This document shows, piece after piece, positions 1 to 57,140 of a DNA stretch of 64,000 nucleotides (its first letter is position 1; each line of letters starts with the position of its first letter). The DNA lies in NCBI GenBank assembly GCA_902586925.1, contig CACIJE010000001.1, positions 5,720 to 69,719 of the forward strand. Reading direction: 5' to 3'. The DNA comes from an uncultured SAR86 cluster bacterium. Its GTDB lineage: Bacteria; Pseudomonadota; Gammaproteobacteria; Magnimaribacterales; D2472. The notes beneath the pieces are model-generated. The model ran no database searches. It was not told where the DNA came from and saw only the letters and a program-made list of their open reading frames with translations. The position numbers were made by a program, and so were the translations under genes.

Positions 1-878
1 CTAAATATTTCTGTTTTTGGAAATTCTATATTCATTTTGTCAATAATCATCTGATTTATTTTTATCCCAAGTTCATTGATTATTCCAAAATAATTATTTT
101 GGGTATATTCAAGCATAGATATTTCCTCAGCCTCCACATATTCATCTAAATTACCTGAAAGAATTTCGTCATAAGAATTTTTTGTTGTTGTTATACATTC
201 TTTCCACATATTCATGAAATCGATATGCAGATTTATATATTTATCAATATCCTTATCAGAAAATTTTTCAATACCAATGATTGCACATTCATCCATGATA
301 AAGTCTAGGACGTTAGGGTCTTTGATACCAGAATCTATTTTATCTATTGCAGTATTTAAATAATTTACTAGATAGTTTCTTCTATTTCTGAGGTAATGAG
401 AGCTTCTCTTACTGTCCCAATATTGATCTTCGAGGCTCAGCATACCTTTTGAAAAATATAAATATGCAGTTTGAAGGTAACACTCGGGTTCTCTTTTATG
501 TAGAAATCGCAAAAATTTATTAATAAATTTTTCTTGTTGATATGCCAAATTAATCACATCACAATCATCATTTTCATTATCATCTTTTTTTCTAAAATCA
601 AGCTCTTTGATTGAATAGGTGACAAAATCTCGCAGTATTTTTATTGCTTTAATGTGATCATCACTCATTTCTAAATTATTCGTATCAAATTCATTGGCTA
701 TTGAAGATGCATTATCAAATTGCTTAACTAACCTTTTATAATCATAAGTATTTATATTATCTTTGCATGTTTGATAATAGTGTTCTGCATCAGCAGCAAT
801 CCAATAAGAAAGATTCAGTTTTGTTTGTAGTTCTAGAAATAATTTATCATCAGCGTTATTTTTTTTGTAAAAGATCAT
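1..878 (-). CDS. hypothetical protein, partial (runs off the left edge)
   Basis: Not in the ORF track. Manual translation from ATG 878 (MIFYKKNNADDKLFLELQ...) stays open for 292 codons to the window edge; it starts 20 bp after the 899-1207 ORF. Confidence 0.75.
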   Translation of the reverse strand, partial: MIFYKKNNADDKLFLELQTKLNLSYWIAADAEHYYQTCKDNINTYDYKRLVKQFDNASSIANEFDTNNLEMSDDHIKAIKILRDFVTYSIKELDFRKKDDNENDDCDVINLAYQQEKFINKFLRFLHKREPECYLQTAYLYFSKGMLSLEDQYWDSKRSSHYLRNRRNYLVNYLNTAIDKIDSGIKDPNVLDFIMDECAIIGIEKFSDKDIDKYINLHIDFMNMWKECITTTKNSYDEILSGNLDEYVEAEEISMLEYTQNNYFGIINELGIKINQMIIDKMNIEFPKTEIF

Positions 879-898
879 TTGCTTATAAGTTTAGTGTT

Positions 899-1207
899 TT
901 AGTACTTTTTAATATTAATAGTTTTTTTTCTTATTGTTCTAGCTTCTTTTGCAGGTACAATCTTTTCTGGCTGTTCCTTATAGCTTATAAATCCCCACTC
1001 AAGATTATAGTTGTTCAACCTTGCAGAAACATGATTTCCCATTGCTTCTTTAAGTTTATCCATACATAAATCTTTATGTATTTTTGCATCCTTCATTACT
1101 CTGTCGCATTCAAGAATTTGCTCTGCGTATATTTCAAGATCCTTTGCAAGAACTTTTATATCTTCATTTGAGCTAGAAGATAGTTTTTTTAATGAGCTCA
1201 TATTCAT
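899..1207 (-). CDS. hypothetical protein (102 aa)
   Basis: ORF with GGAG RBS upstream and an operator palindrome 46 bp upstream; no recognised motif. Confidence 0.7.
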   Translation of the reverse strand: MNMSSLKKLSSSSNEDIKVLAKDLEIYAEQILECDRVMKDAKIHKDLCMDKLKEAMGNHVSARLNNYNLEWGFISYKEQPEKIVPAKEARTIRKKTINIKKY

Positions 1208-1252
1208 ATAGTTCTCCGTTTAATTATTGATTTAAAGATTATTAAATAGTTT

Positions 1253-1271
1253 TGCGACATTTTGTGTCGTA
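1253..1271. promoter_or_regulatory. palindromic operator copy 1 (putative WYL binding site)
   Basis: TGCGACA-TTTTG-TGTCGTA. Confidence 0.75.
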
Positions 1272-1284
1272 TAAAACTAATTTT

Positions 1285-2103
1285 TTAAATGAGTTTATTT
1301 TCTTTCATTCCATCAAATAGCTCAGCATACTCACATTGTTTATCTCCTTTTGGACCAAAACCAGAGTCCGCATGCCTTGGACATTCATTCATTAGAAGAC
1401 AATTCTTAAGTTCCAAAATAGTATCCTCAACCCATGAATCATCTGCGTCATAAGATATCAATTGAACATCAAACCTCATGTTTGCTTTGTCAATTTCATC
1501 ATTTAACATACCGTCTTCGAAATGTTGATCACCATTTACATAAACAAAATAACCAGTTTTACTTACATTGAAGCCTTCTTGTCTTAAAATCCATTGATAC
1601 ATATCCATTTGTTTTTTGTAAGACTCCTTATATGCACCTACTAAGGTTATTTGGTTTAATGCAGTACCTTCATCATTTTTCCTTCCAGCAGTACTTTTAT
1701 AATCAACAACAAAAATTTCATCAGTTTTAAGATCATGCCAAACATCATCCAAGCCACCCCCAATGATCAAATTGGATGGCTCATGGAAAGTTCTCAATCC
1801 AAGTTGAAGTGACTTTGTCCAAAGTTCAAAATTTTCATGTTTAAATGGTACTAGATGACCTAAACCATTTCTTTCCATAAATGGATGTGGCTTTTGCATT
1901 TCTCGATATCTATCAAAATCTTTTTTTAACAATGTATCAGTTGCAGAATTAAGCAAAAAGCCAGGCATTCCTGGAAATTTAATTCCCTTTACCCTATTCA
2001 TCCAAAAGCAAGCAGGGCAATTCATAAATGATTGAATTTGAGATCTGCTTACCTCATAGGGTTCTGGATGTTCTGGTTTATATGTTCCTCTGTGTCTTGC
2101 CAT
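1285..2103 (-). CDS. PD-(D/E)XK nuclease, RecB/Cas4-like
   Basis: SRSQIQSFMNCPACFW, GGLDD, VVDYKST and QMDMYQ motifs, plus C-terminal cysteines. Confidence 0.8.
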   Translation of the reverse strand: MARHRGTYKPEHPEPYEVSRSQIQSFMNCPACFWMNRVKGIKFPGMPGFLLNSATDTLLKKDFDRYREMQKPHPFMERNGLGHLVPFKHENFELWTKSLQLGLRTFHEPSNLIIGGGLDDVWHDLKTDEIFVVDYKSTAGRKNDEGTALNQITLVGAYKESYKKQMDMYQWILRQEGFNVSKTGYFVYVNGDQHFEDGMLNDEIDKANMRFDVQLISYDADDSWVEDTILELKNCLLMNECPRHADSGFGPKGDKQCEYAELFDGMKENKLI

Positions 2104-2122
2104 AACTAATTATAACCACAAA

Positions 2123-2890
2123 TCAAAGCAAGGGTTTTTTTATAGCTTTTGCATCTTTTACGCCAAGGATATCTTTAATAAATCGGTATCCCTCTTGCCC
2201 CCTCTTCTTGATAAGCGCCTTTTTAAAAATATCTTTTTCCTCACCAGATAGACCATAAATAAAATCAAGCATATGTTTGTTGGTGCCACCAAAAATAGGC
2301 ATAGTTATGTAAAAAGCGTTTTTGGTGCAGGCTACAGTTTGTCCCTCTTCATTTTGATTAATGGCGATTTGTTGCCCTCTAATATTACTTTTATCAACAA
2401 TAAGGTGCTTAAAGTCTAGGATATATTTAGCGTTATATAGGATTGAATTATTTTTTTTATTATCGACTTTTTGATTTTTAATTATTTTTTTTAATTCAGG
2501 AAACTTACCATCTATCGGATTAAAAAAAAATGTATTAATAGCAGCGTTATCAAGACTAATAAAATATTTTCTATACATATTTTTTGATATGTTTGAACGA
2601 TATTTAACAATAATTTTTTTCTTTCTATTTGCTGATTTTCTTGAGAGAGTAATTAATTTCTCCAGGCCCTTTTTAGGAATAATGATTCCTTTTTTATGAG
2701 AACATGAGCCTAACTCGTCATAGAAACATATTATTCTGTGGCCATCTGTGGCAACTATATTTACACCGCCATGTACAGAAGGATTTATAAAAACACCTTG
2801 TAAATTCTGCCTCCAATCAACATTTGGCACAATAAACATTGCATTGCCAAACATTCCAGCATTGAATTCTAATAAAGTATTCTTATGCAT
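2123..2890 (-). CDS. truncated DNA polymerase III beta-clamp-like protein
   Basis: RQNLQGV...IVATDGHRI and IDGKFP match the DnaN central domain; YITMPI resembles the DnaN C-terminal strand. Likely start ATG 2890 (track starts at 2899). Confidence 0.65.
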   Translation of the reverse strand: MHKNTLLEFNAGMFGNAMFIVPNVDWRQNLQGVFINPSVHGGVNIVATDGHRIICFYDELGSCSHKKGIIIPKKGLEKLITLSRKSANRKKKIIVKYRSNISKNMYRKYFISLDNAAINTFFFNPIDGKFPELKKIIKNQKVDNKKNNSILYNAKYILDFKHLIVDKSNIRGQQIAINQNEEGQTVACTKNAFYITMPIFGGTNKHMLDFIYGLSGEEKDIFKKALIKKRGQEGYRFIKDILGVKDAKAIKKPLL

Positions 2891-5057
2891 AAGCGTCACT
2901 TGTTTCTTGTTTGTTAAAACCGAAGTCTCTCTTGTATTTAGCTATTAAAAGAAGATCATCTTCTCCTAGCTTATTGCAGAATATTTCAAATAATTTTTTT
3001 CTGTCTAATTCAGATTTAAACCATTTTGGCTTAATTTTTTGTAATCTCTTTAATGAAAGCTTTTTGGCTAATGACATATTCGATTTAAAAGCTGGGACAC
3101 ATATATCTTTATCGGTTTTGATTGTTATGTGTGCTCTTAAAAATTTTTCTTCAGGCTTGTCGTGAAAAATGTTATCAAGTAATCTTTTATTTTTTTTAGA
3201 AGAAATTGATGCATATTTAAACGATTGTGTATTTTTCATACAAGCAAATTTTAAAACATCAGGGTCTGACTTTATTCTTTCTGAAGCGTATTTTAAGCTT
3301 TGATATGATTTTATAACCGCTTGAATCATAAATTTTTTATTATCAAGTAGATTTGGTGGTATATGATTTTTTTCAAAGCAAGTAAGTCCTTGTTCTGCAA
3401 ATAATTTGAAATAAAATTTGCTATTAACAATTTTATTAAATTGCTCGGGTTTGCAAAAAGGTGCATTCCTAGGATCTTTTTTTTGACCAAATTTAATTTC
3501 AGGATCGTATATTAGAAAATTTGGATTTTTTAATAAAAAATATTCCATAATTTCACGAGTTTTGAGTTTATCTGAAATTTTAAAATAAAATAATTTGCTA
3601 TAGGATTCATTGTCTGCATGATGACGGTAATCAAAAGTTGATTGATAACTTATGATTTTTTTTAAGAACTCAAAGTCTTTATTTGATTCTATATGCTCGA
3701 TAGTTCTTTTAGTGATATCGTCAAGGAACGTCCTGACAAAACCATCTTCATAATAATTCGATATGTGAAGCATTTTTCTAAATTGTATTAAAAAAAGTTT
3801 AGAAGATTTAACCCTTTCATCTAAATTGTCGTAAAATTTTTTGATCTCATAAGAATATATAAACTCATCCCCACGATCTCCACTTACATGCGGGTGAATA
3901 TTTAATTTACATGCAATATGATGAATATATTCTGCTGCTTTTTTAGGACTAGCCTCAATATATTTTAAAAATGTGCACTTTTTTGATTCTATTTTTTTAT
4001 GCATAAAAAAAAGAGGGTGAGATGGATTATGAAGGCTGATATTTACATGACTATAAATACTATAATCTTGATCTAAAAATCTACATTCGTAGAGAAATTT
4101 GCTTATCTTTGAATCTGTAATTTTATTTATATCAATATTTTCTGAGATTTGTTTGGAGGCGTTAATCGTATTAAAAATTGGCCAGTTAAAACGAAAATTA
4201 ACAAGCTTATCTATACTTTTAGTCTTTTTAAAAAAAGCATCTAAAATAGCATTTCGTAACAAAGAAAAATCTATACCAGAAATCCTTAATTTTCTCATCA
4301 TTATTTTTGTCGATTCGTGATATCCATAATAACCTTTACCTTCAAAAGGGAATGGTAAAACATGAGGAGTTGGGGTGCTAAGTGCATAATCTATGACGAT
4401 ATCCGCGTACTCCTCTAGTGTAATTTCATTATTAAGCATGAATAAATAAGCTGCGCTTGGTGAAAGCTTAAGTGCTTGTTTTTTAATCTCAAGGTCATCA
4501 TATGTTTTAGATTTTTTTATTACTTTCCAAGGTGGGCTAAAATATTCCCATGAAGCAACGTGAAATTTGTCAAAAAGTGAAAGATTTTTAGGGTGACTAG
4601 AAGGTATTTTTAGACAATTATCATATTGTTTAGATTTTGGCACTAGTAAATTTTTTGAGTGACCAAAAGATCTTAGAATATTTTTTTTTGTTTGAAATGA
4701 GTGATCTAGAGACTCTACAAAATTAAATGAGTCATCTTTTTTATTTTCAATAATAAAATTAATTATGAACGGGTCATTAAAACATATTTCAGGCAAGTGT
4801 CTTGGCATTTTCTTTTGCCTTGTTAACCATTTTAAAACTATTTCTCTATCACTTCTTAACCTCTCAGAAATATGAGCAATATTAAAATACTTCTCATGTA
4901 TATACTCAAGTACGAAGTCTTTATCATCAAAATATTTTGATGAAATAATTTCATCTGGCTTAGTATGCCAGCGATTAGCAAGTGATTTATAGGCTTCAAT
5001 AACTGAAGATTTGTTGTTTATCAATGGTTTGTTGAATAAATTTTGACTATTTTTCAT
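2883..5057 (-). CDS. DUF4116 repeat-containing protein
   Basis: Repeats such as DDKDFVLEYI...ISERLRSDREIVL and DNKKFMIQAV...LKYASERIKSDPDVL. Confidence 0.7.
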   Translation of the reverse strand: MKNSQNLFNKPLINNKSSVIEAYKSLANRWHTKPDEIISSKYFDDKDFVLEYIHEKYFNIAHISERLRSDREIVLKWLTRQKKMPRHLPEICFNDPFIINFIIENKKDDSFNFVESLDHSFQTKKNILRSFGHSKNLLVPKSKQYDNCLKIPSSHPKNLSLFDKFHVASWEYFSPPWKVIKKSKTYDDLEIKKQALKLSPSAAYLFMLNNEITLEEYADIVIDYALSTPTPHVLPFPFEGKGYYGYHESTKIMMRKLRISGIDFSLLRNAILDAFFKKTKSIDKLVNFRFNWPIFNTINASKQISENIDINKITDSKISKFLYECRFLDQDYSIYSHVNISLHNPSHPLFFMHKKIESKKCTFLKYIEASPKKAAEYIHHIACKLNIHPHVSGDRGDEFIYSYEIKKFYDNLDERVKSSKLFLIQFRKMLHISNYYEDGFVRTFLDDITKRTIEHIESNKDFEFLKKIISYQSTFDYRHHADNESYSKLFYFKISDKLKTREIMEYFLLKNPNFLIYDPEIKFGQKKDPRNAPFCKPEQFNKIVNSKFYFKLFAEQGLTCFEKNHIPPNLLDNKKFMIQAVIKSYQSLKYASERIKSDPDVLKFACMKNTQSFKYASISSKKNKRLLDNIFHDKPEEKFLRAHITIKTDKDICVPAFKSNMSLAKKLSLKRLQKIKPKWFKSELDRKKLFEIFCNKLGEDDLLLIAKYKRDFGFNKQETSDAYA

Positions 5058-5058
5058 T

Positions 5059-6213
5059 TTAGTGCCAACTTTCAGTAGAAATTCTTATTACTTCGCCAAA
5101 AGGAAATTCTGAAGTTTCTTCACCATCAGCTGAAACTAACCACATGACAGGATCCTTTGGAACAAATTTTGGAAATTCTTCGTATCCATCTGTGAGGTAA
5201 ATAGAAACTTTATGGGAACCCATATGATTTTCGTTGTTTTTTTCAAGGTATTTAAAGAAGGGTACAAAGCTTGTTCCTCCCCCTCCCTTTAAAACTGGGA
5301 TTTCTTCAGGAGAGCTTATTTTAAATGGGCCAGACAATTCACAATCACAAAAGAAAAAGTCACATTTCACATGTGGATATGATTTTAATATTCCATTTAT
5401 CTCTGCTACAAATTGATCTATTAGATCTCTTGAGACTGAACCACTTGTATCAACACAAACTGATACTTCCAAAGCCTCGGTCATAAGACCCTCAAGATAA
5501 AGCCCTCTGTACAAGAATCTTCTGTCTAAGTCATCAAAATCTGCTGGTGTTCTTCCTACATATTTCCAAAGTGCATGTCTCCAATTCACCTCAGGTTCTA
5601 AAATATTTTCTACTTCTCTTTCCATTCCATCTGGCAAACCTCCTGTGGTATTACTGCCAAATTTGTCAGAATTATTTACCATATCGGAGTTTTTTAAAAC
5701 TTGTATTTTATCTTTCCAGTAACTTTCTATCTCCAGACCATCTGCTTGACTAGAATTATCATTAGTTCCGCCGTCTTTAAGATCCTGAATATATGATTTA
5801 TGCTTTTTGTATTTATTGTTTTTCAGTAAAGATTCGTAAATAAATTCAACTGACTTATCCCTGTATGTTTTATCAGTAATTGCTCCTTTTGGCAGTATAA
5901 AAGTAGTATTTCTTAAAATTAAATCATTTACGACTATGTCAGCAGCAATATTCCATATTTTTGGATCTCTATTTTGTCGTCTTGTAACATGCAGCAGTGC
6001 CATATGAAGAACTTCGTGCAACATTAAGGCATTTTGCTCTGAAGAATTAAGGCTTTTGAGAAAATTCATGTTGAAATAAATATCTTTTCCATCTGTACAA
6101 GCTGTATCATATTTTTTTGTTTCTTTAATCGAGGCAAATAACATCAAGGCTCCAAAGAATTGACATTCTTTTCGGACTTGAAGCTTGCATTTGCTGATAA
6201 TTTCTTCAAACAT
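5059..6213 (-). CDS. DUF2201-type metallopeptidase plus vWA-like domain protein
   Basis: TACTDG, HEVLH zincin motif, WNIAAD, MIDAS DTSGS, GGGGTSF, LTDGY. Confidence 0.88.
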   Translation of the reverse strand: MFEEIISKCKLQVRKECQFFGALMLFASIKETKKYDTACTDGKDIYFNMNFLKSLNSSEQNALMLHEVLHMALLHVTRRQNRDPKIWNIAADIVVNDLILRNTTFILPKGAITDKTYRDKSVEFIYESLLKNNKYKKHKSYIQDLKDGGTNDNSSQADGLEIESYWKDKIQVLKNSDMVNNSDKFGSNTTGGLPDGMEREVENILEPEVNWRHALWKYVGRTPADFDDLDRRFLYRGLYLEGLMTEALEVSVCVDTSGSVSRDLIDQFVAEINGILKSYPHVKCDFFFCDCELSGPFKISSPEEIPVLKGGGGTSFVPFFKYLEKNNENHMGSHKVSIYLTDGYEEFPKFVPKDPVMWLVSADGEETSEFPFGEVIRISTESWH

Positions 6214-6214
6214 T

Positions 6215-7222
6215 TTATGCTGCTAATAATTTTTGAAGTCTTTCTGCAACCTTCATAAGCTTGTTATTATTTGCAATCATATCTACTAACTGGTCCATTT
6301 GTTTAGAAGTTTTCCATTTTGCACAGACATCATAAGTACACTGACTAAGCCACTCCATTCCACCTTTATCATCAATATATAAGAAGGTGTTTTCTACTTC
6401 TTTTATGGTCTTAGCTCTTGTTGCAAGAGCGCATGTTAGTGCATACCTAGCAGATAAATCCTTAGGGAAGCTTGGTTTTGCCTTACCTTTTAATATTGGT
6501 TCAATATCTGGTAATGTTTTATAAACTTTGCAAAAACTTCTAAATTCAGCTGCACAACCCTCGCCTATTGCAGGATCTATGTCTAAATTAGCTTTCAACA
6601 AAGAATTGCTAATATCCCAACTTCTTGGTGAAGGCCATGAGGGAGAGTTTTTGTCAATTTTATGGAGATATTTTGGTCTAAAATTAAGAAATGAAATAAT
6701 TCTGTCGTCAACATCATTTGTTAAGGCATAGTCCTTAAACTCATCAAGACCTGTTGTAACCTCCAGATGAATAAATCTATTAGCCAAAGGTGCTGGCATA
6801 TCAAAAACTGCTGCAAAATCCTCTTTTCTATTTCCAGCTGACCAAATAAACCATCCGTCAGGGACTTTATAGCTACCAACTTTTCTGTCTAAAATTAATT
6901 GTTGAGCAATACCTTGAACAGCAGGTGGTGCCATATTTATTTCGTCTAAGAATAGAATGCCTTTTCCATCTTTTGGTAAAAATTCTGGGGGATACCAACA
7001 AGCAACATTATCGTTTGGAACAGGGATACCTCGTAAATCTGTTGGAGCTAATTGACTAATCCTTAGATCTATAAGCTCAAGATTATTTCTTTTTGCAACC
7101 GAACTTACTACAGATGATTTTCCAATACCTGGTGCACCCCAAATCATCAACGAAGATTGGATATTATGTTCAACTATGCTGCTAAGATAGGATGAAAGTT
7201 TTTTTATTGAAAGTTTTTTCAT
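6215..7222 (-). CDS. MoxR-like AAA+ ATPase
   Basis: Walker A GAPGIGKS, Walker B ILFLDEIN, AGNR, LANRF, SPRSW. Start ATG 7222 follows AGAGG RBS. Confidence 0.88.
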   Translation of the reverse strand: MKKLSIKKLSSYLSSIVEHNIQSSLMIWGAPGIGKSSVVSSVAKRNNLELIDLRISQLAPTDLRGIPVPNDNVACWYPPEFLPKDGKGILFLDEINMAPPAVQGIAQQLILDRKVGSYKVPDGWFIWSAGNRKEDFAAVFDMPAPLANRFIHLEVTTGLDEFKDYALTNDVDDRIISFLNFRPKYLHKIDKNSPSWPSPRSWDISNSLLKANLDIDPAIGEGCAAEFRSFCKVYKTLPDIEPILKGKAKPSFPKDLSARYALTCALATRAKTIKEVENTFLYIDDKGGMEWLSQCTYDVCAKWKTSKQMDQLVDMIANNNKLMKVAERLQKLLAA

Positions 7223-7267
7223 TTTTTTTCCTCTTTGAAATTTAATTATCATAAGATATTATTAAGT

Positions 7268-7286
7268 AACGACATTTTGTGTCGCA
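7268..7286. promoter_or_regulatory. palindromic operator copy 2, between the divergent AAA ATPase and WYL genes
   Basis: AACGACA-TTTTG-TGTCGCA. Confidence 0.8.
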
Positions 7287-7304
7287 TTTAAAGATTAAAG
7301 TTTG

Positions 7305-8315
7305 ATGAAAAAACCAACTCGTTATGAGGCTATAAGAAGAGGATTTAATATCCTCTCTATGGTCAGTCGAGCTCCATTAGGATCTAAAGATGTCCATGAT
7401 CGAATAAATCGAATTGGTACTGAAGTAAGTAGAAAAACTATTGAAAGAGATTTAAAAGAACTAACTGATCGATTCCCTGAGATGATTGAAGTTGATGATT
7501 CATCTAAACCATATACCTATAGACAGCCAAAACATGCTAGAAAATATTCTGCAATGAGTGCAGAGGAAGCTATATGTCTTCAACTTGCGTTCACTTATTT
7601 AAATCCTTTGTTGCCGAATAGATCACTCGATGATATCAGGCCTTATTTAAAAGAGGCGGAAGCTGTCCTAGGTGAGCAGTCTTCTGTAAAAATGAAAAAT
7701 TGGAAACATAAAGTTTTAACTGTTAATGAGGGTTTACAGCTTGCACAAGCAAAAATTAGAGACAATATTTTAACAAATATACACAAAGCTCTCTGGGATG
7801 GTAAAGCAATTATTGCAAGCTATCAGTCAAAAAGTAAAGCTTTTCCCTCTGAGTACAAGCTTCACCCTGCTGGGCTTGTTTACAGAGGAAGAATTTGTTA
7901 CTTAGTTTGTTCTTTTGATGATTCACCAGATAACATTATTTATTTAGCAGCACATAGGTTTCACAAAATTAAAATTTCTCTTGATACCTATAGCAGACAT
8001 AAAAATCAAAAAGTTAAAGATCTAGCTAAAGACTTATTTGGGTTTAAGCTGAATGACAAAAAAATAAATATTAAACTAAAGTTTTCTGTTCAAGCAGGAT
8101 CTCATCTGTATGAAACGCCAATTTCGAGTTCTCAAAAAATAAAGATGTCTAGAGATGGCTATATATTAGTTGAGGATAAAGTTACTGATAATATGGAACT
8201 TAGATTTTGGATAAGAGCTTTTGGAGATTCTGTAGAAGTAATTAAACCAGTCAAACTTCGAGATGAGTTTAAGAAAATATCAAAAAGAATGGTAAATTTA
8301 TATAATGAAAATTAA
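7305..8315 (+). CDS. WYL domain transcriptional regulator (HTH-WYL-WCX)
   Basis: N-terminal wHTH (VSRKTIERDLKEL), WYL region (LHPAGLVYRGRICYLV...HRF) and C-terminal WCX (WIRAFGDSVEVIKPVKLR). Confidence 0.9.
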   Translation: MKKPTRYEAIRRGFNILSMVSRAPLGSKDVHDRINRIGTEVSRKTIERDLKELTDRFPEMIEVDDSSKPYTYRQPKHARKYSAMSAEEAICLQLAFTYLNPLLPNRSLDDIRPYLKEAEAVLGEQSSVKMKNWKHKVLTVNEGLQLAQAKIRDNILTNIHKALWDGKAIIASYQSKSKAFPSEYKLHPAGLVYRGRICYLVCSFDDSPDNIIYLAAHRFHKIKISLDTYSRHKNQKVKDLAKDLFGFKLNDKKINIKLKFSVQAGSHLYETPISSSQKIKMSRDGYILVEDKVTDNMELRFWIRAFGDSVEVIKPVKLRDEFKKISKRMVNLYNEN

Positions 8316-8703
8316 GCCAAATTCTATTGATGCTGTTATTTTTTTTACATTGTATATTTGCGCTCAAGACGATTTAATTGCTAAGGAAGAAATTGAACAA
8401 ATTGATATTGAATTTCCAATGATTCAAAAATTATATTTTGATATATATGGGGAATTCATTAAAGAGGACCTTAAAGAGCTTATGAGAAGTGTTTCAAACA
8501 AATTATTATCAAGTAACAAATTTATCAAAAAAAGTGTATCAAAACTAGAAAATACTACTTTTTCAACATTAATTACAGATCCGAAGCTTCAAGACATTTC
8601 ATTATTATTCGCTAGGCATGCTGCAAGTGCAGACGGTTTACATGCTCTAGAAGAAAACAAGTTTAATTATTGGGCAAAAAAATGGGGTCTTTCGAAAGTT
8701 TAA
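8305..8703 (+). CDS. TerB-like protein
   Basis: AQDDLIAKEE and ASADGLHALEE half-repeats; overlaps the WYL stop; paralogous to 14430-14774. Confidence 0.6.
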   Translation: MKIKPNSIDAVIFFTLYICAQDDLIAKEEIEQIDIEFPMIQKLYFDIYGEFIKEDLKELMRSVSNKLLSSNKFIKKSVSKLENTTFSTLITDPKLQDISLLFARHAASADGLHALEENKFNYWAKKWGLSKV

Positions 8704-9512
8704 TGTTTTGTTATTGATGAAGTGACTACACCTATAATTTGAAAATCACAAGTCTCAAAATCTTTATAAACTTTATCTTTTTTATCAATTACAAATCCAT
8801 TTTTTCTATATTCAAGACATCCACATATAAATTCGCCGTCTATCATAGCAACAACAATATCATTAATTTCTGGTTTTTGAGATTGATCAACAATCATAAT
8901 ATCTCCGTCGTTAATACCGTGCTCTCGATTAGATTGGCCTTGAGCTCTATATAGGATAGTTGCAGATCTATTTCGAATAAGATATTTGTTTAAATCTATA
9001 GGACCTTCGATATAATCTGATTCATCACTTGGAAAACTTGGTTTATTTTTCTTATTTAAACATGGGTATATAATTTTTCTCAAAAATTTGGTATCAATAA
9101 CCTTTCCACTATATACAGCATCACAAAGTTCTTCTGATTCAAAAAATCTTTTTTCATGGGAACCAAATTTATTAGTTTTAATGTTTAAGCTTATCGGGAA
9201 GAAAATTGTTCCTGGCTTTGAACGATCTTCTGTTAATAAAGCTCTTAATGGAGACGGTATGGAATATCCATCAAAAATGTAATCTGCAAATCGTAATAAA
9301 TTAAAGAAGATTTTCCAAGCAATGCTTTTTTTTAAATTAGCTTCTTTTTGTAAACACTTTTCTCTTAGATTTTTATATTTTTGTTCAAGATATTCTTTTT
9401 TATTACGTAAATCTGAAATTTCTTTTGCTTTGACAAAAATTTCGTCTCCCTCAGCAGGCAAGCTTTCTCTTATTCTTATGTCTTTGGAAACTTTTATTAT
9501 CTCATCAGGCAT
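8700..9512 (-). CDS. N-terminally extended UmuD/S24-like protein, probably catalytically inactive
   Basis: C-terminal half aligns with the UmuD at 28389 (DYIEGPIDLNKYLIRN, RAQGQS, IDGEF). Start 9512 (MPDEII) or 9596. Confidence 0.75.
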   Translation of the reverse strand: MPDEIIKVSKDIRIRESLPAEGDEIFVKAKEISDLRNKKEYLEQKYKNLREKCLQKEANLKKSIAWKIFFNLLRFADYIFDGYSIPSPLRALLTEDRSKPGTIFFPISLNIKTNKFGSHEKRFFESEELCDAVYSGKVIDTKFLRKIIYPCLNKKNKPSFPSDESDYIEGPIDLNKYLIRNRSATILYRAQGQSNREHGINDGDIMIVDQSQKPEINDIVVAMIDGEFICGCLEYRKNGFVIDKKDKVYKDFETCDFQIIGVVTSSITKH

Positions 9513-9600
9513 ATACGTTTGATCTATTAATATAGACAAAACATATATTTGATTTATTTTAGTGTTTCCTAATAAACCTTTAGTAGTGAAAATCATTACT

Positions 9601-9789
9601 TTAAAAAATGATTTTTAAACTAAATGAAATTTGACTTGGTTCTTCCTCAACACAGGATTTCGAGGAGAAAATGTGTTTAATATTACTATTTTTTTTATAA
9701 ACATAGTTTTTTGATAATTCATTGTAAAAATCTGATGACATATTTGGAAGTTCTAGTTGCAATTCTTTTGATTCTGATTCTGTAGTCAT
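9601..9789 (-). CDS. small hypothetical protein (62 aa)
   Basis: Strong AGGAG RBS; operator 47 bp upstream. Confidence 0.6.
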   Translation of the reverse strand: MTTESESKELQLELPNMSSDFYNELSKNYVYKKNSNIKHIFSSKSCVEEEPSQISFSLKIIF

Positions 9790-9835
9790 TTTTATTCTCC
9801 TATTAATTTTTAATAATAAAATTATTTATCAATCA

Positions 9836-9854
9836 TGCGACAGAATAGGTCGGA
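9836..9854. promoter_or_regulatory. palindromic operator copy 3
   Basis: TGCGACA-GAATA-GGTCGGA. Confidence 0.65.
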
Positions 9855-9865
9855 AAAAAATATTA

Positions 9866-10116
9866 GAGTGGCGCCCTTGCATAATTTTACTCATACCAGG
9901 GCGCATCTATAGTGATCCGTTGCATATAGATGCTTTAACAAGCTCACCTAACAAGGCGTCTTTCACTTTGCATATAGATGCTTTAACAAGCTTAGCTAAC
10001 AAACGTCCTTGTTCTTGATTTTCCGCAAAGCTAATGTGCTTTTGTACTAATAACATAAAATATCGATAAATATTACGGTAATAATCAATGTTTAATAAAA
10101 TATGCCACTCAATCAA
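9866..10116 (-). ncRNA. putative structured non-coding RNA, copy A
   Basis: Several helices with compensatory changes relative to copy B; G-U pairs favour the minus strand; lies just downstream of operator 4. Confidence 0.6.
9920..10007. repeat. internal tandem duplication with 48-bp period
   Basis: TTGCATATAGATGCTTTAACAAGCT is identical at 9920-9944 and 9968-9992. Confidence 0.9.
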
Positions 10117-10139
10117 CTATGAAAATTATTTATCAATCA

Positions 10140-10158
10140 TGCGACATAATAGGTCGGA
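10140..10158. promoter_or_regulatory. palindromic operator copy 4
   Basis: TGCGACA-TAATA-GGTCGGA. Confidence 0.65.
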
Positions 10159-10183
10159 CAAAAAGATATACTAGAATTGAAAT

Positions 10184-10379
10184 CGCCCTCGCATAATTTT
10201 ACTCATACGAGGGTGCTTCAATGTAGATCCGTAGCATAAGAAGATTTAACAAGCTCAGCTAAAAAAGCATCCTTGTATTGTTTTTTCCGCAAAGCTAATG
10301 TGCTTTTGTACTAATAACGTAAAATATCGATAAACATTACGGTTAAAAACAAGGTTTAATTAAATATGCCACCAAACCA
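10184..10379 (-). ncRNA. putative structured non-coding RNA, copy B
   Basis: Homologous to copy A with the same helices and no conserved reading frame; begins right after the stop of the 717-aa gene. Confidence 0.55.
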
Positions 10380-12533
10380 CTATGCCACTTCTGCAAGTAG
10401 TTGTTTTTTAAATTTCGAATGCTTCAGCATCGACTTATGAACAACTGATCTATAAGCATTATAGACATAGATTTTTTCTTTTTTATCTAATTCTGAGGTA
10501 TCTAATTTATAGAAATCATTTTTGTTTAGTAAAAATTTTGCGTATTCTGGATTAATTTTAAAAACACAATTTGAAATTGTTTTATGAAAACAATGTGTTC
10601 TAAGAATTAATTGTAAGATTGATAAATCCTGGTCACGACCTCCAGTCAACATTGGATTATGTAATAAATATTGTGCAATAAATAACCTATTTTTAAGCAA
10701 TTTAGATCCTCGAAGATCATCAGTTGATTCAATGTGTGGTGGAGGCACACTTATGATAAATTTAGAAAATTTATCTCCAGAAATAATAACTTTATTGAAA
10801 CAGTTTAAACATTTAAAATTTTTTCTATATACCTGCTTGATTAAACAGTGATTTTTTTTCCATTGAGGATAAATCTTAAGAACAGTTTGCATCTGTTTTA
10901 CTGAATAACTTTCTAAAGTTTCAAGAAAAAGATTTTTTGATTCTTCTGAAGAGTAGTGTTTAGATGCAAAATTCCAAAACTGAATTAATATATCAAGACT
11001 GTGTTTCTGTGAAACATAATATTTATATATTTTTTTTATCAAATCTTTATCTTTGTATGGATCTAAATTTAACTTTGAAAATCTATTTCCTCTTGAGGAT
11101 ATGAGATTTTGTGGCATCTTTCTCATGAAATATTTCTTAATATTGTATTGATCATCTCGTAGCATGTGAAAAGTATTTTGTATATGGTCATAATCTGCAT
11201 ATATCGATTGCGTTATAAGATACTTTCGTATTTTTGGACAATTTTTAATCATCAGCTTGACTAGGTTGTAATCAAAATCTAAAAGCTCATGGGATGAAAT
11301 ATTAAATGTAGAGCCATAGAATTTAAATACCCTGATTAGTTCTCTACATATTTTAAAATCGCTTTGCAAAATTGTTGGAAGCGCTAAATATGACTTTCCA
11401 ATTTTTCCTGATACATGAGATGCTTTTTCTGTAGAGCCTTGAAATAGATTTACCTGGCTAAATTTTTCATTTGGATTTAATTTTAGTTGTTCAAGCTCTT
11501 TTTTAATGTTTTGTAATTCCCTATAAAAGTTATCTTTATGTATTTTATAATCTGATAACTTAGCTGTTTCCATTTTATTTAAATTATTCTTTATCAAACT
11601 CAATTCAAAAATATCTATATTTCCATTATTTTTTTTACGGTGATGTGTTTTAGCAGCAAGTAATAAAAAGGCTTTTTTAGCTTTAGAAAGCTTTATATTT
11701 TTTTTAGACAAATCTAGAATTTCTTGATATTTAATTTTAGTTACTTTGCTTTCAGGACAATAATCAAAGTAATACTGAAGATCATTATCTGTTAAGTTTT
11801 TTAGATTGATATCAATATGTTGAAAACATTTATTTTTTACAATTTTTGTTGTTATTGTATCTATGTTCCTAATTTTTGAAGGGATGCAGTCGATTTGATT
11901 GGGATAGTTATCTATCATGCAAGATGCAATATCTAAATCGTATTGCATATCAGAGGTTAAATCACCATACGTAAAAATAACATCATTAGTATTTCTATTA
12001 TTTTTTGAAAAGCAGCCGTTATTTAGGGCTTTTAGAAGTTGATTTTTTTTGAGTTTTCTTCCTATTCCTTTATGCAGTGGTAATCCAAACTCAACCAGCT
12101 TTTGAGTTATTTCAGGATCATTTAAGACTTTAAATGATATGACTCTTACAAAAGATGTCGTATTAAAGCTTTTAGAATTTTTACTTAATAATTTTAATAA
12201 CAGTCCTTTATCTTCTCTGATGTATGAAGGCATAATCCCCCAGTCAAGCGGATGTTTTGAGTTTGTGATTACTTTTATATATAGATTTTTATGAGATATA
12301 TCTTTTGAAATTTTATATCTATGCAGCCTGCCAAGCCATCCTTGTAAAGACCAGTTATCATATCTTATTATAAAATTTAATAGGTCTACATCAGTAAGAT
12401 ATTTAAAAGGAATGGAATTAATATCCATTTTTTTACTTTTAATTTTTCTTAAAACACCTGCTTTGTTAAGCAAATGTTTTGTCTTAAAATCAAGGTAAAC
12501 AAACCCTGCAGATGATTTTGTTAAATAGTTCAT
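10380..12533 (-). CDS. large basic hypothetical protein, possibly with degenerate DUF4116-like repeats
   Basis: 717-aa ORF with segments like MPSYIREDKGLLLKLL, LTSDMQYDLDIA and LPTILQSDFKIC. Confidence 0.7.
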   Translation of the reverse strand: MNYLTKSSAGFVYLDFKTKHLLNKAGVLRKIKSKKMDINSIPFKYLTDVDLLNFIIRYDNWSLQGWLGRLHRYKISKDISHKNLYIKVITNSKHPLDWGIMPSYIREDKGLLLKLLSKNSKSFNTTSFVRVISFKVLNDPEITQKLVEFGLPLHKGIGRKLKKNQLLKALNNGCFSKNNRNTNDVIFTYGDLTSDMQYDLDIASCMIDNYPNQIDCIPSKIRNIDTITTKIVKNKCFQHIDINLKNLTDNDLQYYFDYCPESKVTKIKYQEILDLSKKNIKLSKAKKAFLLLAAKTHHRKKNNGNIDIFELSLIKNNLNKMETAKLSDYKIHKDNFYRELQNIKKELEQLKLNPNEKFSQVNLFQGSTEKASHVSGKIGKSYLALPTILQSDFKICRELIRVFKFYGSTFNISSHELLDFDYNLVKLMIKNCPKIRKYLITQSIYADYDHIQNTFHMLRDDQYNIKKYFMRKMPQNLISSRGNRFSKLNLDPYKDKDLIKKIYKYYVSQKHSLDILIQFWNFASKHYSSEESKNLFLETLESYSVKQMQTVLKIYPQWKKNHCLIKQVYRKNFKCLNCFNKVIISGDKFSKFIISVPPPHIESTDDLRGSKLLKNRLFIAQYLLHNPMLTGGRDQDLSILQLILRTHCFHKTISNCVFKINPEYAKFLLNKNDFYKLDTSELDKKEKIYVYNAYRSVVHKSMLKHSKFKKQLLAEVA

Positions 12534-13336
12534 ATGCTTAAAGAGGGTAAAGAGTTTTTGCTGTTTGCTAAATCTAATAACCTTTTTTTATGAGTTGCAA
12601 TAATAAAGGGGTCTGTATCAAACCTTTGACATCTTTTCTTATATTGCTGCCATATTAACTTAAAAATTTTTGGATCTTGCATCAAAGAATAGTCGAGCAC
12701 ATCGATTTGAATATTTTTAAGTTTTTTTATAAATTGTAGTCTATTATTTTTCTTTGAAAAAATCGCAGCTTCTATAAAGCATAAATATTTTTTTTCAGAC
12801 TTTTCAAGACAATCAAAATACTTACCATTTTCAATAATTATTTGTCTTTTTATATCTAAATTTGGATGAACATTAGTTAAAAATTTTATTAGCTCTGGAT
12901 TAGAGTTGCAACTGTATTCCTTTATATTCTGTGGCATATGATTAACTAAAAATGGAAAGGAGTCAGAAATCTTTTTTCCAATCTTATTGTTAAGCTTAGA
13001 TTTGTAAACTTTATAAAAAATATCTCGAACATCTTTTTTTATCTTATCAATTTTATTTTCGAATATATTTTGAGACATATGCTCATGGGCATATTTAAAA
13101 ACATTCCCTCTTTTATCTTTTCCTTGATCAATGATCAATCTTGTTTGCGAAAATTGTGGCCAAATATGATATTTGACCTTCTTGTTAGATGATTTTCTGT
13201 AAAATCCTCCATTGCCGCCAACAGAATCTATAAGCATTTGCATTTTCTCAATGTCATTTTTTAGTCCCATCCAATAGAAGTTTTCGTTTGCTATATGAGA
13301 CTCTCCTCTTGCCTCTTCTAATAATTTTATATTCAT
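12530..13336 (-). CDS. hypothetical protein (268 aa)
   Basis: ORF with a 4-bp overlap to the 717-aa gene. Confidence 0.7.
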   Translation of the reverse strand: MNIKLLEEARGESHIANENFYWMGLKNDIEKMQMLIDSVGGNGGFYRKSSNKKVKYHIWPQFSQTRLIIDQGKDKRGNVFKYAHEHMSQNIFENKIDKIKKDVRDIFYKVYKSKLNNKIGKKISDSFPFLVNHMPQNIKEYSCNSNPELIKFLTNVHPNLDIKRQIIIENGKYFDCLEKSEKKYLCFIEAAIFSKKNNRLQFIKKLKNIQIDVLDYSLMQDPKIFKLIWQQYKKRCQRFDTDPFIIATHKKRLLDLANSKNSLPSLSI

Positions 13337-13401
13337 TAACAGTATTTCTTATGTTTTGCCATTTACCTTATTGGTAATAGGAATAAATTTTTACTAAGAG
13401 T

Positions 13402-13420
13402 TGCGACATTTAGTGTCGCA
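13402..13420. promoter_or_regulatory. palindromic operator copy 5 (perfect arms)
   Basis: TGCGACA-TTTAG-TGTCGCA. Confidence 0.8.
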
Positions 13421-13435
13421 TAGAAGAATAAAACT

Positions 13436-13762
13436 TTAGTGATGATTTTCTATATCTGGAGGATCGCTTTTTATTAAATATTCAATATCTTCTGATTGTT
13501 CTTGTTTATGCCCAACGAGAATTATTATTTTATTGTTGCTTAGGACGCAAGTATAAATTCTTCCCTGATTATCATTTCCATTTGATATCTTATGAGTAAC
13601 TTCTTTCCAGTGCTTAGTTTTTTGTACATTTTTATAAGAGATATAGCTGTCTTTACTATGAATTTTATATATTACATCCTCCAGCTTCTGAGTATCTTTG
13701 AAATGCCTATAAACAGCTTTAAGACCCCTTGGTAATAAATTAATATTCGAGTATCTATCCAT
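13436..13762 (-). CDS. hypothetical protein, possible RelE/HigB-fold toxin
   Basis: C-terminal GRIY...IIILVGHKQEQSEDI resembles the RIY...LL.GxK..Q..DI pattern of HigB-like toxins. Confidence 0.5.
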   Translation of the reverse strand: MDRYSNINLLPRGLKAVYRHFKDTQKLEDVIYKIHSKDSYISYKNVQKTKHWKEVTHKISNGNDNQGRIYTCVLSNNKIIILVGHKQEQSEDIEYLIKSDPPDIENHH

Positions 13763-13788
13763 GCTTCTCTCAAATTGCGATACTAATA

Positions 13789-13807
13789 TGCGACATTTTA
13801 GGTCGCA
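13789..13807. promoter_or_regulatory. palindromic operator copy 6
   Basis: TGCGACA-TTTTA-GGTCGCA, with an extra half-site TGCGATA at 13776-13782. Confidence 0.75.
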
Positions 13808-14011
13808 TTGATTACAAATCTAAAAGCTGTCTATATTCTTGAAGCTCATATCTATTTGCAATATTTAAATATGAAAATAATGCGAAGGGTTACAGAGAAA
13901 AAAATGGTTCGCAGGAATGCGGTTCTTGAGATAAATTTACTTTAGTATTTACTTAAGCATCTTTGTAATTATGATTTATAAAAATTAAAAGTTATATTTC
14001 TATTCTAGGAA

Positions 14012-14272
14012 TTAATTTATAAGCTCCCAAACACCTCTTGGGCTATCCTTTGCTGATTTTAAAATCCCTTTTTGCCTGAGATGTGTTGCTGCCCATCTAT
14101 AATCATATTGCCATGTATAAAATAAGTCGCCAGATGTTTTTAAGTCTGTTTCATGATTTTTCCATATTATTTTGGCTATCTCTATTACATTTCCACTGCC
14201 ATTATTTTCGTAAAGAGCTTCTTCAACCCATTTTGAAAGAATAATTTTATTTGATGCTATCGCTTTACCCAT
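14012..14272 (-). CDS. stand-alone Mrr N-terminal-like winged-helix protein
   Basis: RWAATHLRQKGIL...PRGVWEL is typical of Mrr_N; GGAGG RBS. Confidence 0.65.
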   Translation of the reverse strand: MGKAIASNKIILSKWVEEALYENNGSGNVIEIAKIIWKNHETDLKTSGDLFYTWQYDYRWAATHLRQKGILKSAKDSPRGVWELIN

Positions 14273-14429
14273 TAGTACCTCCCTGAATTAATTTATTGAT
14301 TAACTATATTATCAAATATTGTTGGTAACATTTATTTCAAAAATATTAATATCGCACCATACAAAATAATAGTATTTATTTGCACATTTTAATGCTTGGT
14401 GTAAATTAATAACTACATGGGGACAAATT

Positions 14430-14774
14430 ATGAAAGAAGTAATTGATGTAATAAAGCTTTCTGCTTGCATTTCTGCACAAGATGGTGTGATTTCAAATAG
14501 AGAATTAGATACATGTCGTGAGCTTATAAGAGATGAGTACGGAGATCTTAGTGACGATTCATTTGATCAGGCAATTGATGATTTTTTTGATGAGAACCTT
14601 GATTTAGAGGATTATTTAGAGAAGGTTAAATCACATAAAATGGATAATCATTGCGTTTTAAAGATTAGCTATGAGTCAGCTATTAGTGATGGTTTTGATA
14701 TAAGAGAAAATTTAGCTTTCACAAAAGCATGTAAATTTTTTGACATACCAGAAGAGGAATTTATTGATGCCTGA
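14430..14774 (+). CDS. TerB-like protein
   Basis: AQDGVISNRE and AISDGFDIRE half-repeats. Confidence 0.65.
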   Translation: MKEVIDVIKLSACISAQDGVISNRELDTCRELIRDEYGDLSDDSFDQAIDDFFDENLDLEDYLEKVKSHKMDNHCVLKISYESAISDGFDIRENLAFTKACKFFDIPEEEFIDA

Positions 14775-18917: not shown

Positions 18918-18919
18918 TA

Positions 18920-19891: not shown

Positions 19892-19906
19892 ACTTTAACT
19901 AATTCT

Positions 19907-22045: not shown

Positions 22046-22057
22046 GAGATAAAAAAC

Positions 22058-22987: not shown

Positions 22988-22992
22988 AAATT

Positions 22993-57071: not shown

Positions 57072-57110
57072 ACTAATCTAACTTGTAAAATTATATATAA
57101 AATTGTATTA

Positions 57111-57130
57111 TACTGTATATATATTCAGTA
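57111..57130. promoter_or_regulatory. LexA (SOS) box, autoregulatory
   Basis: TACTGTATATATATTCAGTA (one mismatch to consensus), 10 bp before the lexA ATG. Confidence 0.9.
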
Positions 57131-57140
57131 TTTTATTATT

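Follow-up and report, generated by a model that had tools for sequence, protein, structure and literature searches.

An operator-defined regulon under probable WYL-WCX control, with phage-related cargo, in a tRNA-Asn-linked island of a SAR86 cluster bacterium

The 64,000-nucleotide (nt) window analyzed here (positions 5,720 to 69,719 of contig CACIJE010000001.1, from an uncultured SAR86 cluster bacterium) opens with a compact gene cluster at 1-13.8 kb that is organized around a single regulator of the WYL-WCX type. Coordinates are positions in this window; G numbers denote genomes (G000 being the 1.18-Mb assembly that carries the window), L numbers metagenome or contig loci, and P numbers protein homologues. 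In the open reading frame (ORF) listing, nearly all genes of the cluster lie on the minus strand around the one plus-strand regulator. Divergent from the WYL-WCX gene is a tight minus-strand run encoding an AAA+ ATPase, a zincin-like metallopeptidase with a vWA domain (zincin-vWA), a DUF4116 protein, a beta-clamp-like protein, and a Cas4-like nuclease, whose spacing (1 nt, 1 nt, an overlap, and 19 nt) marks the five genes as one operon. On the far side of the regulator lie an S24/UmuD-like gene, an ORF of 62 amino acids (aa; o62), ~590 nt of non-coding sequence, and ORFs of 717, 268, and 108 aa (o717, o268, and o108), the last three of which had no Pfam match in a profile search of the window ORFs. 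The core order is o268-o717-o62, WYL, the MoxR-like AAA+, zincin-vWA, clamp-like, and Cas4-like nuclease genes, and then o102-o292. A first-pass annotation of this DNA had placed the system at 1285-12533, an interval that falls inside the unit and is too narrow, since o102 and o292 (3-1207), o268 (12530-13336), and o108 (13436-13762) also belong to it.

The strongest finding is a set of shared operators. A repeat search of the window recovered a 17-bp palindrome, GCGAC-N7-GTCGC, which, allowing up to one mismatch, has 8 occurrences in the assembly, 6 of them within 12.6 kb (1254-13806); a reversed-pattern control gave 0 places across the assembly. The genes and operators described in the first-pass annotation are real. 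The island sites start at 1254, 7269, 9837, 10141, 13403, and 13790; all six are intergenic, stand 6-10 nt before an AT-rich -10-like box, and precede, by 16-66 nt, either a start codon or the second copy of a non-coding element. The two outlying sites have GC-rich spacers and one is within an ORF (42307-43512), and a search of the whole assembly did not find the palindrome at recA, lexA, umuDC, or other core repair genes. Within the island the palindrome overlies the -35/spacer position of AT-rich promoters. For example, in a consensus scan of the minus-strand AAA+ promoter the GCGACA half-site was scored as the -35 hexamer, 16 nt from AATAAT; this sigma-70 scan returned fewer sites than shuffled sequence (61 versus 74.6) and cannot place promoters. 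The operator arms are constant and the 7-nt centers differ, a pattern expected of a dimeric DNA-binding protein and not of an RNA hairpin.

The six sites delimit six units, and an operator-defined regulon is well supported. Operator 6 (13790..13806, GCGACATTTTAGGTCGC, a perfect palindrome) lies upstream of o108 and forms the outer edge of the regulon, and operator 5 (13403..13419, GCGACATTTAGTGTCGC, also perfect) precedes o268-o717 with a structured 3' element; in L014 the corresponding palindrome, GCGACACTTATTGTCGC, is 74 nt upstream of its o268. Operator 4 (10141..10157, GCGACATAATAGGTCGG) sits between the two non-coding copies, ahead of the second, and operator 3 (9837..9853, GCGACAGAATAGGTCGG) is upstream of o62 and the S24 gene, its equivalent in L012 and L014 being GCGACATATTCTGACGC. 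Operator 2 (7269..7285, ACGACATTTTGTGTCGC) occupies the 50-bp gap between the WYL gene and the AAA-vWA-DUF4116-clamp-nuclease operon; it is kept in L012 and L014, and its position suggests autoregulation. Operator 1 (1254..1270, GCGACATTTTGTGTCGT) is 46 nt upstream of the start of o102, in the o102-o292 unit, and its slot is occupied in L011, L012, L013, L014, L017, G062, and G015. Counted over all equivalent slots, L014 has four palindromes, L012 three, and L011, L013, L017, G062, and G015 one each.

The WYL-WCX protein (7302..8315, plus strand, 337 aa) is the only regulator that Pfam and PADLOC profile searches found in the island and is the presumed operator-binding protein; the earlier proposal that the units share one operator type and one WYL regulator is supported. 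Residues 156-224 match PF13280 (39.6 bits, cut-off 21.8) and residues 254-331 match the WCX dimerization domain PF25583 (51.7 bits, cut-off 23.9). PADLOC WYL models also match (E 1.1e-25), the whole-protein model PDLC01457 aligning over residues 13-318, and the N-terminus gave no Pfam HTH match. Related regulators offer precedents. As described in PMC11662680, CapW and BrxR bind ~20-bp palindromes, single-stranded DNA (ssDNA) releases CapW from DNA, such ssDNA-sensing WYL regulators control single defence operons, and an RWHVR motif on the WYL strand marks their lineage. Other ssDNA-sensing WYL regulators, DriD and PafBC, run damage regulons (PMC9186387; PMC11804915; PMC13010146). DriD binds a 20-bp palindrome at several promoters (PMC9186387), and according to the Discussion of that paper the operator replaces the -35 box at PafBC promoters.

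The core of the module recurs in related marine contigs. A metagenome scan yielded 7 loci out of 147 pattern matches, on which the window proteins were placed by tblastn and ORF listing. Both L014 (14.6 kb) and L012 (9 kb) carry o268-o717-o62, an opposite-strand WYL gene, and AAA-vWA-clamp-nuclease-o102-o292, followed by tRNA-Asn and uvrB, and the core also recurs, again next to these two genes, in one same-genus genome. Neither locus has the DUF4116 gene, the S24 fusion, o132, or o108, which are therefore accessories. The expectation that the components would co-occur elsewhere is borne out for the core; the S24 fusion and the 724-aa DUF4116 gene are optional. The latter, which precedes the clamp-like gene, is present in L013 (92% identity) and L015 (42%), and its linkage to the clamp-like and nuclease genes persists in L015 at 42-44% identity. 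The module is rare beyond these loci. A clamp-like query in 60 relatives found only frames of dnaN size, and the nuclease occurs in 5/41 genus genomes: G000, G062 (97%), G015 (two frameshifted pieces), and G005 and G036 (31-36%), the last two with no other island gene near their distant nucleases. In G015 a 27%-identical clamp-like type stands beside the nuclease remnant. A class-wide profile search of 400 genomes gave, among the matches listed, only dnaN-size frames besides G000 and is uninformative for short paralogues; another 221 weaker matches are unlisted, and the tally takes in the unpublished G103, G204, G358, and G370, on which none of the individual claims made here depends.

The region of G015 that holds these remnants (L030, G015:C1:698000-717900) also has two near-identical umuD-umuC copies (8079-9769 and 12954-14590) with duplicated flanks and masked stretches. 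One operator lies between the copies, together with the frameshifted nuclease and a divergent clamp-like ORF that is truncated (12187-12651). Either a segment carrying a decayed module was genuinely duplicated, or the arrangement is an artefact of assembly.

Divergence among the related loci is uneven. Some genes are well conserved (the AAA+ ATPase at 92% and the WYL regulator at 77-80% identity in L012 and L014, zincin-vWA at 88-91% in L012-L014, and the nuclease at 78-97% in related loci), while others diverge faster: 44-92% for the clamp-like protein, ~47% for o62, 44% for o268, and 40% for o717. Such a contrast hints that the o268-o717-o62 arm and the clamp-like gene are subject to diversifying pressure or to cassette exchange, as would be expected if some parts of the module are under conflict.

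Every identifiable cargo gene has a phage relative in PHROG (phrog_1297, 1314, 3007, 31839, and 811). The MoxR-like ATPase (6215..7252, minus strand) is an AAA_5 protein with Walker A at residues 39-46 and Walker B at 100-104; it belongs with phrog_1297 (E 2.1e-88), matches 853 phage records, and is 47-53% identical to the ATPase of S-TIM5-type cyanophages. Zincin-vWA (5059..6213, minus strand; DUF2201_N 106.1 bits, DUF2201 62.8 bits; phrog_1314, E 3e-74) has HEVLH at residues 66-70 and the MIDAS motif DTSGS at 255-259. Adjacent across a 1-nt gap and with intact motifs, the two genes constitute the pair phrog_1297 + phrog_1314 of phages and other mobile genetic elements. MoxR/peptidase-vWA pairs are common in N4-like phages, cyanophages, and plasmids, and lie near transfer genes on conjugative plasmids. 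The DUF4116 repeat protein (2883..5057, minus strand, 724 aa) matches PF13475 (67.8 bits) and phrog_31839 (E 1.3e-11). At the end of the operon, the RecB/Cas4-like nuclease (1285..2103, minus strand, 272 aa; PF12705 28.6 bits, cut-off 22; PADLOC Cas4, E 1.3e-6) has a PD-(D/E)XK core formed by LDDVW (118-122), VDYKS (133-137), and QMDMY (165-169). Cas4 proteins hold an Fe-S cluster with one N-terminal and three C-terminal cysteines; here cysteines are at 29, 32, 235, 241, and 257. Cas4 proper is linked to a CRISPR-cas adaptation module, whereas no other cas family was present among the scanned ORFs of 1-25.3 kb, the rest of the genome lying outside this search.

Between the DUF4116 and nuclease genes is a short beta-clamp-like protein (2123..2899, minus strand; 258 aa from GTG, or 255 aa from the ATG at 2890), and its identification as a truncated clamp relative stands. 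It consists of DnaN domain II, the C-terminal part of domain III, and a 35-aa helical tail. Among the DnaN domains only the central PF02767 matches (25.6 bits, under the cut-off of 27), TIGR00663 aligns over positions 137-254 of 367 (E 1.6e-11; 43.8 bits versus an equivalog cut-off of 137.65), and phrog_3007 matches at E 5.7e-22. The genuine dnaN is elsewhere (G000:C1:419724, a 373-aa frame), and DnaN proteins have 366-373 aa versus 258 aa here. An AF2 model built from 80 sequences reached a pLDDT of 88.3 (with only 8 sequences it was 34.7 and unusable), and beta clamps head its list of PDB matches (Foldseek E 5.5e-8, TM ~0.5). The family profile aligns to Escherichia coli DnaN 138-256 and, weakly, to ~316-366. 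Taking the peptide-binding pocket as the 18 residues listed in PMC11139829, 11/18 are identical, 5 conservative, 1 different, and 1 unmapped, with the C-terminal part of this mapping dependent on the weak second alignment stretch. The identical positions (clamp-like to E. coli) are R30 to R152, L33 to L155, T51 to T172, G53 to G174, H54 to H175, R55 to R176, P134 to P242, N156 to N320, Y159 to Y323, M200 to M362, and P201 to P363; the TDGHR pocket motif is lost in more divergent marine members. Since domain I is absent, a closed ring or dimer of the DnaN type appears unlikely.

The clamp-like family is broad and is found in phages. When 1.84 billion representatives were searched with the family profile, 1196 proteins matched at E ≤ 1e-3 and 55 at E ≤ 1e-10, most of 200-260 aa, and 66/80 sampled members match PF02767. 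The window protein itself found nothing in a phage collection by tblastn; a family member then used as query found 174 phage records, annotated as "DNA polymerase III beta subunit" or "RusA-like", in early-gene regions. None of the remaining island proteins was found next to the short clamp-like gene at 13/13 phage or viral loci that carry one. Scans with alignment A2 gave one weak match among GTDB contigs (29% over 100 aa), which stood apart from any further island gene, and no match among viruses.

The first-pass annotation went further and proposed that these elements converge on the replication clamp and Pol V through clamp-binding motifs; we find the case for this mechanism weak. In 15 island ORFs (4368 residues) the canonical motifs Q-phi-x-[L/M]-[F/L] and Q-phi-x-[L/M]-x-[F/L] occur once, versus 1.47 +/- 1.26 times in 500 shuffles, and relaxed motifs 18 times versus 17.4. 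Two motifs that had been singled out are not conserved: QVNLF of o717 falls in an indel missing from both o717 orthologues, and QLELP of o62 is QKELP in both of its orthologues. What is conserved is the near-canonical C-terminus of o62 (9601..9789, minus strand), a 62-aa peptide with a shared KE.Q.ELPNM..DFY.EL.KNY.Y pattern, a Q-x-S-F tail, and orthologues of 47-50% identity in L012 and L014. The three C-termini read QISFSL, QTSFSF, and QTSFRF, that is, Q-x-S-F-x-[FL] in 3/3, and the L012 and L014 proteins end with these six residues. With Phe at position 4 and, in two orthologues, Thr at position 2, the tail misses canonical Q-phi-x-[L/M]-x-[F/L]. A complex prediction for the clamp-like protein with the o62 peptide scored 0.00 without controls and counts neither for nor against binding.

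The UmuD paralogue of that proposal is an inactive UmuD'-like S24 fusion (8700..9596, minus strand, 298 aa) in which an S24 domain (~185-298) follows a 175-aa N-terminal region. Its homologues P0165, P0166, and P0168 (the last 49% identical to the island protein) align from residue 1, so the start is at 9596 and not at 9512 as annotated earlier. The domain matches PF00717 (49.1 bits) and NF007621 (95.3 bits, under the cut-off of 110), and over its last 110 residues the protein shares 44-45% identity with the genus UmuD. The claim that it lacks catalytic and cleavage residues is partly right. The catalytic lysine of UmuD and LexA is replaced (Gly259) in 4/4 fusion-family members, and the cleavage site is lost, with Pro186-Ser187 where UmuD and LexA have A-G and no A/C-G site in 4/4 members; Ser222, by contrast, is invariant in 7/7 aligned sequences. 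The gene is a third copy beside umuD (28389-28817), umuC (28817-30079), and lexA (57066-57755). No umuC follows it: the downstream neighbor is the convergent o132, and the only umuC is that at 28817-30079. The fusion has no match in L012 or L014.

The second arm of the module comprises o268, o717, the non-coding element, and o62. The first gene of its o268-o717 unit, o268 (12530..13336, minus strand), has no family match in profile searches. The large, fast-evolving o717 (10380..12533, minus strand) appears DUF4116-related: its L014 orthologue matches PF13475 (30.1 bits, cut-off 24.9), and its Atlas lead is a viral cluster with DUF4116 at a score of 0.87, under 0.9. The 40% and 44% identities above are those of o717 with its L014 and L012 orthologues and of o268 with L014. 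By repeat search the non-coding element is a tandem repeat. Copy 1 (10160..10385, minus strand) lies directly behind the o717 stop codon, copy 2 (9856..10125, minus strand) has its own operator and a -10-like box upstream, and both end in a GC-rich hairpin. The structured RNA proposed earlier is this element; both copies fold better than shuffled sequence (z -2.75 for copy 2; z -4.15 for copy 1, with 0/200 shuffles as good), and Rfam gave no match for the window at gathering scores or for 9700-10450 even at E ≤ 1. A frame in copy 2, o69, is lost in copy 1. Both L012 and L014 retain the 5' GTGGCATA box and the terminal hairpin and differ in the middle. A doubled GTGGCATA/GTGGTATA box also spans the o717 stop codon and the start of the element (10360-10400; L014 5700-5760; L012 1580-1640); it is conserved in 4/4 aligned copies though the following sequence differs.

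The regulon (1-13806) is part of a ~25-kb accessory island 3' of a tRNA-Asn beside uvrB. In the island-less arrangement of G015, uvrB and tRNA-Asn are followed directly by LMWPc, sulfotransferase, cyclophilin, phosphoesterase, and umuDC; in G000 the same downstream genes start only at 25366, and the ~25.5 kb between tRNA-Asn and LMWPc therefore represents an insertion at the tRNA. The tRNA-Asn, which separates uvrB from the island, is at L009 5554-5628, a stretch of G000 contig 1 immediately to the left of the window. At L009 5660-5676, 32 nt past it, is a 17-nt partial copy of the tRNA 3' end with 3 mismatches, where 0 are expected by chance. The same tRNA-Asn adjoins the module in L012, L014, L016, and G062 and is present in island-less G015; the site is a tRNA-linked insertion hotspot. 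We found no far-side copy of the tRNA-Asn 3' end within the window, no shared repeat of at least 12 nt linking the two island junctions, and no integrase, recombinase, transposase, capsid, or terminase family among the scanned ORFs of 1-25.3 kb.

Besides the WYL regulon, the insert holds an Mrr_N-like ORF, TerB, homologues of MzaB, MzaC, MzaD, and MzaE at 14.7-22 kb (E 1e-57, 5e-107, 2e-16, and 2e-74, respectively), two m5C methyltransferases, and a PDDEXK_3 gene. The stretch 14430-24748 runs from a TerB-like ORF through MzaB, MzaC (Z1), MzaD (DUF4420), and MzaE (AIPR) to two C5 cytosine methyltransferases on the opposite strand, and is an Mza-type defence system with restriction-modification-like methylases adjoining the regulon. 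Between the outermost operator and the Mza genes is an 86-aa ORF (14012-14272) whose Mrr_N-like match is weak (E 0.0025, under cut-off). In L014 the o268 side (1-2705) is flanked by an SNF2-like C-terminal fragment, a 518-aa protein, and a Dam-type methyltransferase, with no Mza. Neighboring defence content is swapped between strains, while the WYL module stays.

Several parts of the module resemble known systems. Like CapW and BrxR, its regulator combines WYL and WCX domains, diverges from its cargo with a palindrome in the shared promoter region, and is set in a defence island; ssDNA is the established ligand of that family (PMC11662680). It differs in having six operators and six units where they have one adjacent operon, in cargo unrelated to CBASS or BREX, and in a WYL strand that reads LVYRGR (192-197; strands matched by eye) instead of RWHVR, with no PDB relative found by phmmer. 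With DriD of Caulobacter and PafBC of Actinobacteria it shares several target promoters including its own, and at didA the DriD site, ATACGTCCGTTTCTGGCGCA, likewise arranges CG-C ... G-CG around a 7-nt center (PMC9186387). The regulon here is nonetheless confined to an accessory island, with no site at a core repair gene, and its operators overlap the -35/spacer region, whereas the didA site ends just upstream of the -35 box (PMC9186387).

The MoxR and zincin-vWA genes have the gene order, strong profile matches, and intact Walker, HExxH, and MIDAS motifs of the phage and plasmid pair, but they are chromosomal, under a WYL operator, and share an operon with genes for a clamp-like protein and a Cas4-like nuclease, neighbors not seen by the pair in cyanophage S-TIM5, pSYSA, or a Burkholderia or Simplicispira plasmid. 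The clamp-like protein shares its length class (~200-260 aa) and sole central clamp domain with phage DnaN-like proteins (PHROG 3007); the window subfamily differs in its 35-aa helical tail and fixed partner nuclease, whereas the phage genes lie among unrelated early genes. Compared with UmuD and UmuD', the S24 protein keeps the C-terminal similarity and the serine and differs in its Lys-to-Gly change, missing cleavage site, 175-aa N-terminal extension, and lack of a following umuC. The Caulobacter SocB toxin is a small protein that blocks the beta clamp; o62 would be like it in idea, as a small induced protein with a clamp-binding tail, its own tail being only near-canonical. Literature searches (supplements excluded) found no description of this gene combination or module. 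WYL-switched island cargo is already a known kind, and we regard this combination as a new variant, most likely defensive.

We tentatively favor a local six-promoter regulon of the island WYL-WCX protein with phage-derived cargo, most likely an inducible anti-phage or abortive module. A WYL dimer would bind the palindromes and, by analogy with CapW and BrxR, keep the units off; ssDNA from phage replication or DNA damage would release it and switch them on. The phage-derived MoxR ATPase and its zincin-vWA partner may then act as a remodelling or proteolytic machine, on a target presented by the co-operonic DUF4116 protein and by the clamp-like protein, which keeps the peptide pocket and lacks domain I, with the Cas4-like nuclease as a putative DNA-cutting effector. 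The second, fast-evolving arm (o268, o717, the non-coding element, and the o62 peptide) would be wired to the same switch, as would the optional inactive UmuD' fusion, o132, and o108. The defensive reading is supported by the operators, the co-occurrence, the Mza/methyltransferase context, the intact motifs, the phage origin of the cargo, and the uneven divergence. From sequence, then, the island is a credible candidate for an inducible module serving defence or the response to damage, and the jamming of the replication clamp is not proven.

Several points weigh against the defensive reading. Both the binding of the palindrome by the WYL protein and the induction of the units are things we infer. 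Given the departure from RWHVR and the lack of a PDB relative noted above, the regulator may be a repressor or, alternatively, an activator like PafBC or DriD. No PADLOC system was called at 1-13.8 kb, as the first-pass annotation had expected, and PADLOC-DB 2.0 gave for these ORFs only the Cas4, WYL, and weak IetA/PDC-S01 P-loop domain matches. Phages and conjugative plasmids, and not known defence systems, are the typical carriers of MoxR/zincin-vWA pairs; the pairs are known in jumbo phages, for which Iyer et al. proposed a role as virion-assembly chaperones (PMC7824862). Finally, all module loci are close marine relatives, so their co-occurrence partly reflects shared descent and is inflated.

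The rival explanations draw on the same genes. A damage-tolerance or repair regulon independent of SOS, of the DriD/PafBC type, in which an ssDNA-activated WYL protein turns on the nuclease, the clamp-like adaptor, the ATPase, and the UmuD'-like modulator so that the cell survives damage instead of fighting phage, is unlikely. Multi-promoter WYL regulons that respond to ssDNA are established (PMC9186387; PMC11804915; PMC13010146), the operator stands in place of the -35 box as at PafBC promoters (PMC9186387), and the island sits between uvrB and the umuDC region. Yet the palindrome is missing from recA, lexA, umuDC, and other core repair genes in the assembly; just two sites fall outside the island, with GC-rich spacers and one within an ORF; the module is rare (clamp-like gene in 0/60 relatives, nuclease in 5/41 genus genomes); the genome already has lexA and umuDC; and the island neighbors are defence genes. 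A decayed integrative element or phage satellite, whose early take-over or replication genes were stranded at a tRNA site with the WYL protein as a lysis/lysogeny-type switch, seems improbable to us. It would account for the position directly 3' of tRNA-Asn with the 17-nt partial tRNA-end copy 32 nt on, for the phage PHROG relatives of every identifiable cargo gene, and for the occurrence of short clamp-like genes in phage early regions and of MoxR/vWA genes near plasmid transfer genes. It fits poorly with the absence of integrase, recombinase, transposase, capsid, and terminase families from the scanned ORFs of 1-25.3 kb and of a far-side tRNA-end copy from the window, and with a clamp-like gene unlinked to other island genes in 13/13 phage or viral loci. 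Furthermore, intact catalytic motifs, and core genes that stay 78-97% identical across contigs while their neighbors differ, argue for maintained function.

It is likewise doubtful that one system jams or reroutes the replisome, with the clamp-like protein, the motif peptide, the 717-aa protein, and the dead UmuD acting on DnaN and Pol V during infection or damage. Of the 18 pocket residues, the clamp-like protein does keep 11 unchanged and replaces 5 conservatively, o62 ends in Q-x-S-F-x-[FL] in 3/3 orthologues, and the same operator also serves a UmuD' domain that is catalytically dead. Against these stand canonical motif counts at chance (1 versus 1.47), QVNLF in an indel and QLELP unconserved, an o62 tail that misses the canonical motif, an S24 fusion absent from L012 and L014, the loss of TDGHR in divergent clamp-like members, a C-terminal pocket mapping that depends on a weak alignment stretch, and 13/13 phage or viral clamp-like loci free of other island proteins. 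A more elaborate version, which we consider very unlikely, is an ssDNA-triggered replisome decoy: the clamp fragment, the o62 peptide, and in some variants the dead UmuD' would, on infection, capture or displace clamp-dependent polymerases of phage or host, the MoxR/vWA pair and the nuclease would dismantle the stalled complex and its DNA, and the fast-evolving DUF4116 proteins would give target specificity.

How streamlined, hugely abundant ocean bacteria with few recognizable defence genes resist phages is an open question. The regulon offers a compact regulatory design for such cells, one WYL sensor with six operators of the same type, and a chromosomal, regulated home for MoxR/zincin-vWA, among the commonest phage gene pairs of unknown function. 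The fixed partnership of this pair with a pocket-retaining clamp fragment and a nuclease gives a handle on the orphan families PHROG 1297/1314 and PHROG 3007. Should the module prove responsive to ssDNA, WYL control would reach beyond single operons to an entire island.

Pieces at least 99% alike to the locus are present in contigs from 4/4 RNA-library runs (4 studies), and 3/4 of these include 10108-10466 of the non-coding region. This is weak evidence for the favored reading, as DNA carry-over is possible: such contigs show neither strand nor level, nor prove an RNA source, and the uncovered parts say nothing about silence.

The remaining small genes lie at the edges of the units. Downstream of the WYL gene, o132 (8305..8703, plus strand) is optional, with no match in L012 or L014, and at the far end o108 (13436..13762, minus strand), a small protein with its own operator, has no match in L014. 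The last gene before tRNA-Asn and uvrB is o292 (1..878, minus strand), whose full ORF has 312 aa and extends 60 nt beyond the window start. It had no Pfam, PHROG, or PADLOC match, and an Atlas look-up gave a best score of 0.79 and no named relative; its identity is 67-68% in L012 and L014 and 95% in G062, with homologues down to 32%. The first gene of its unit, o102 (899..1207, minus strand), has no family match and is a conserved small protein found at 65-100% identity in G062 and in 6/7 metagenome loci, all except the short L015.

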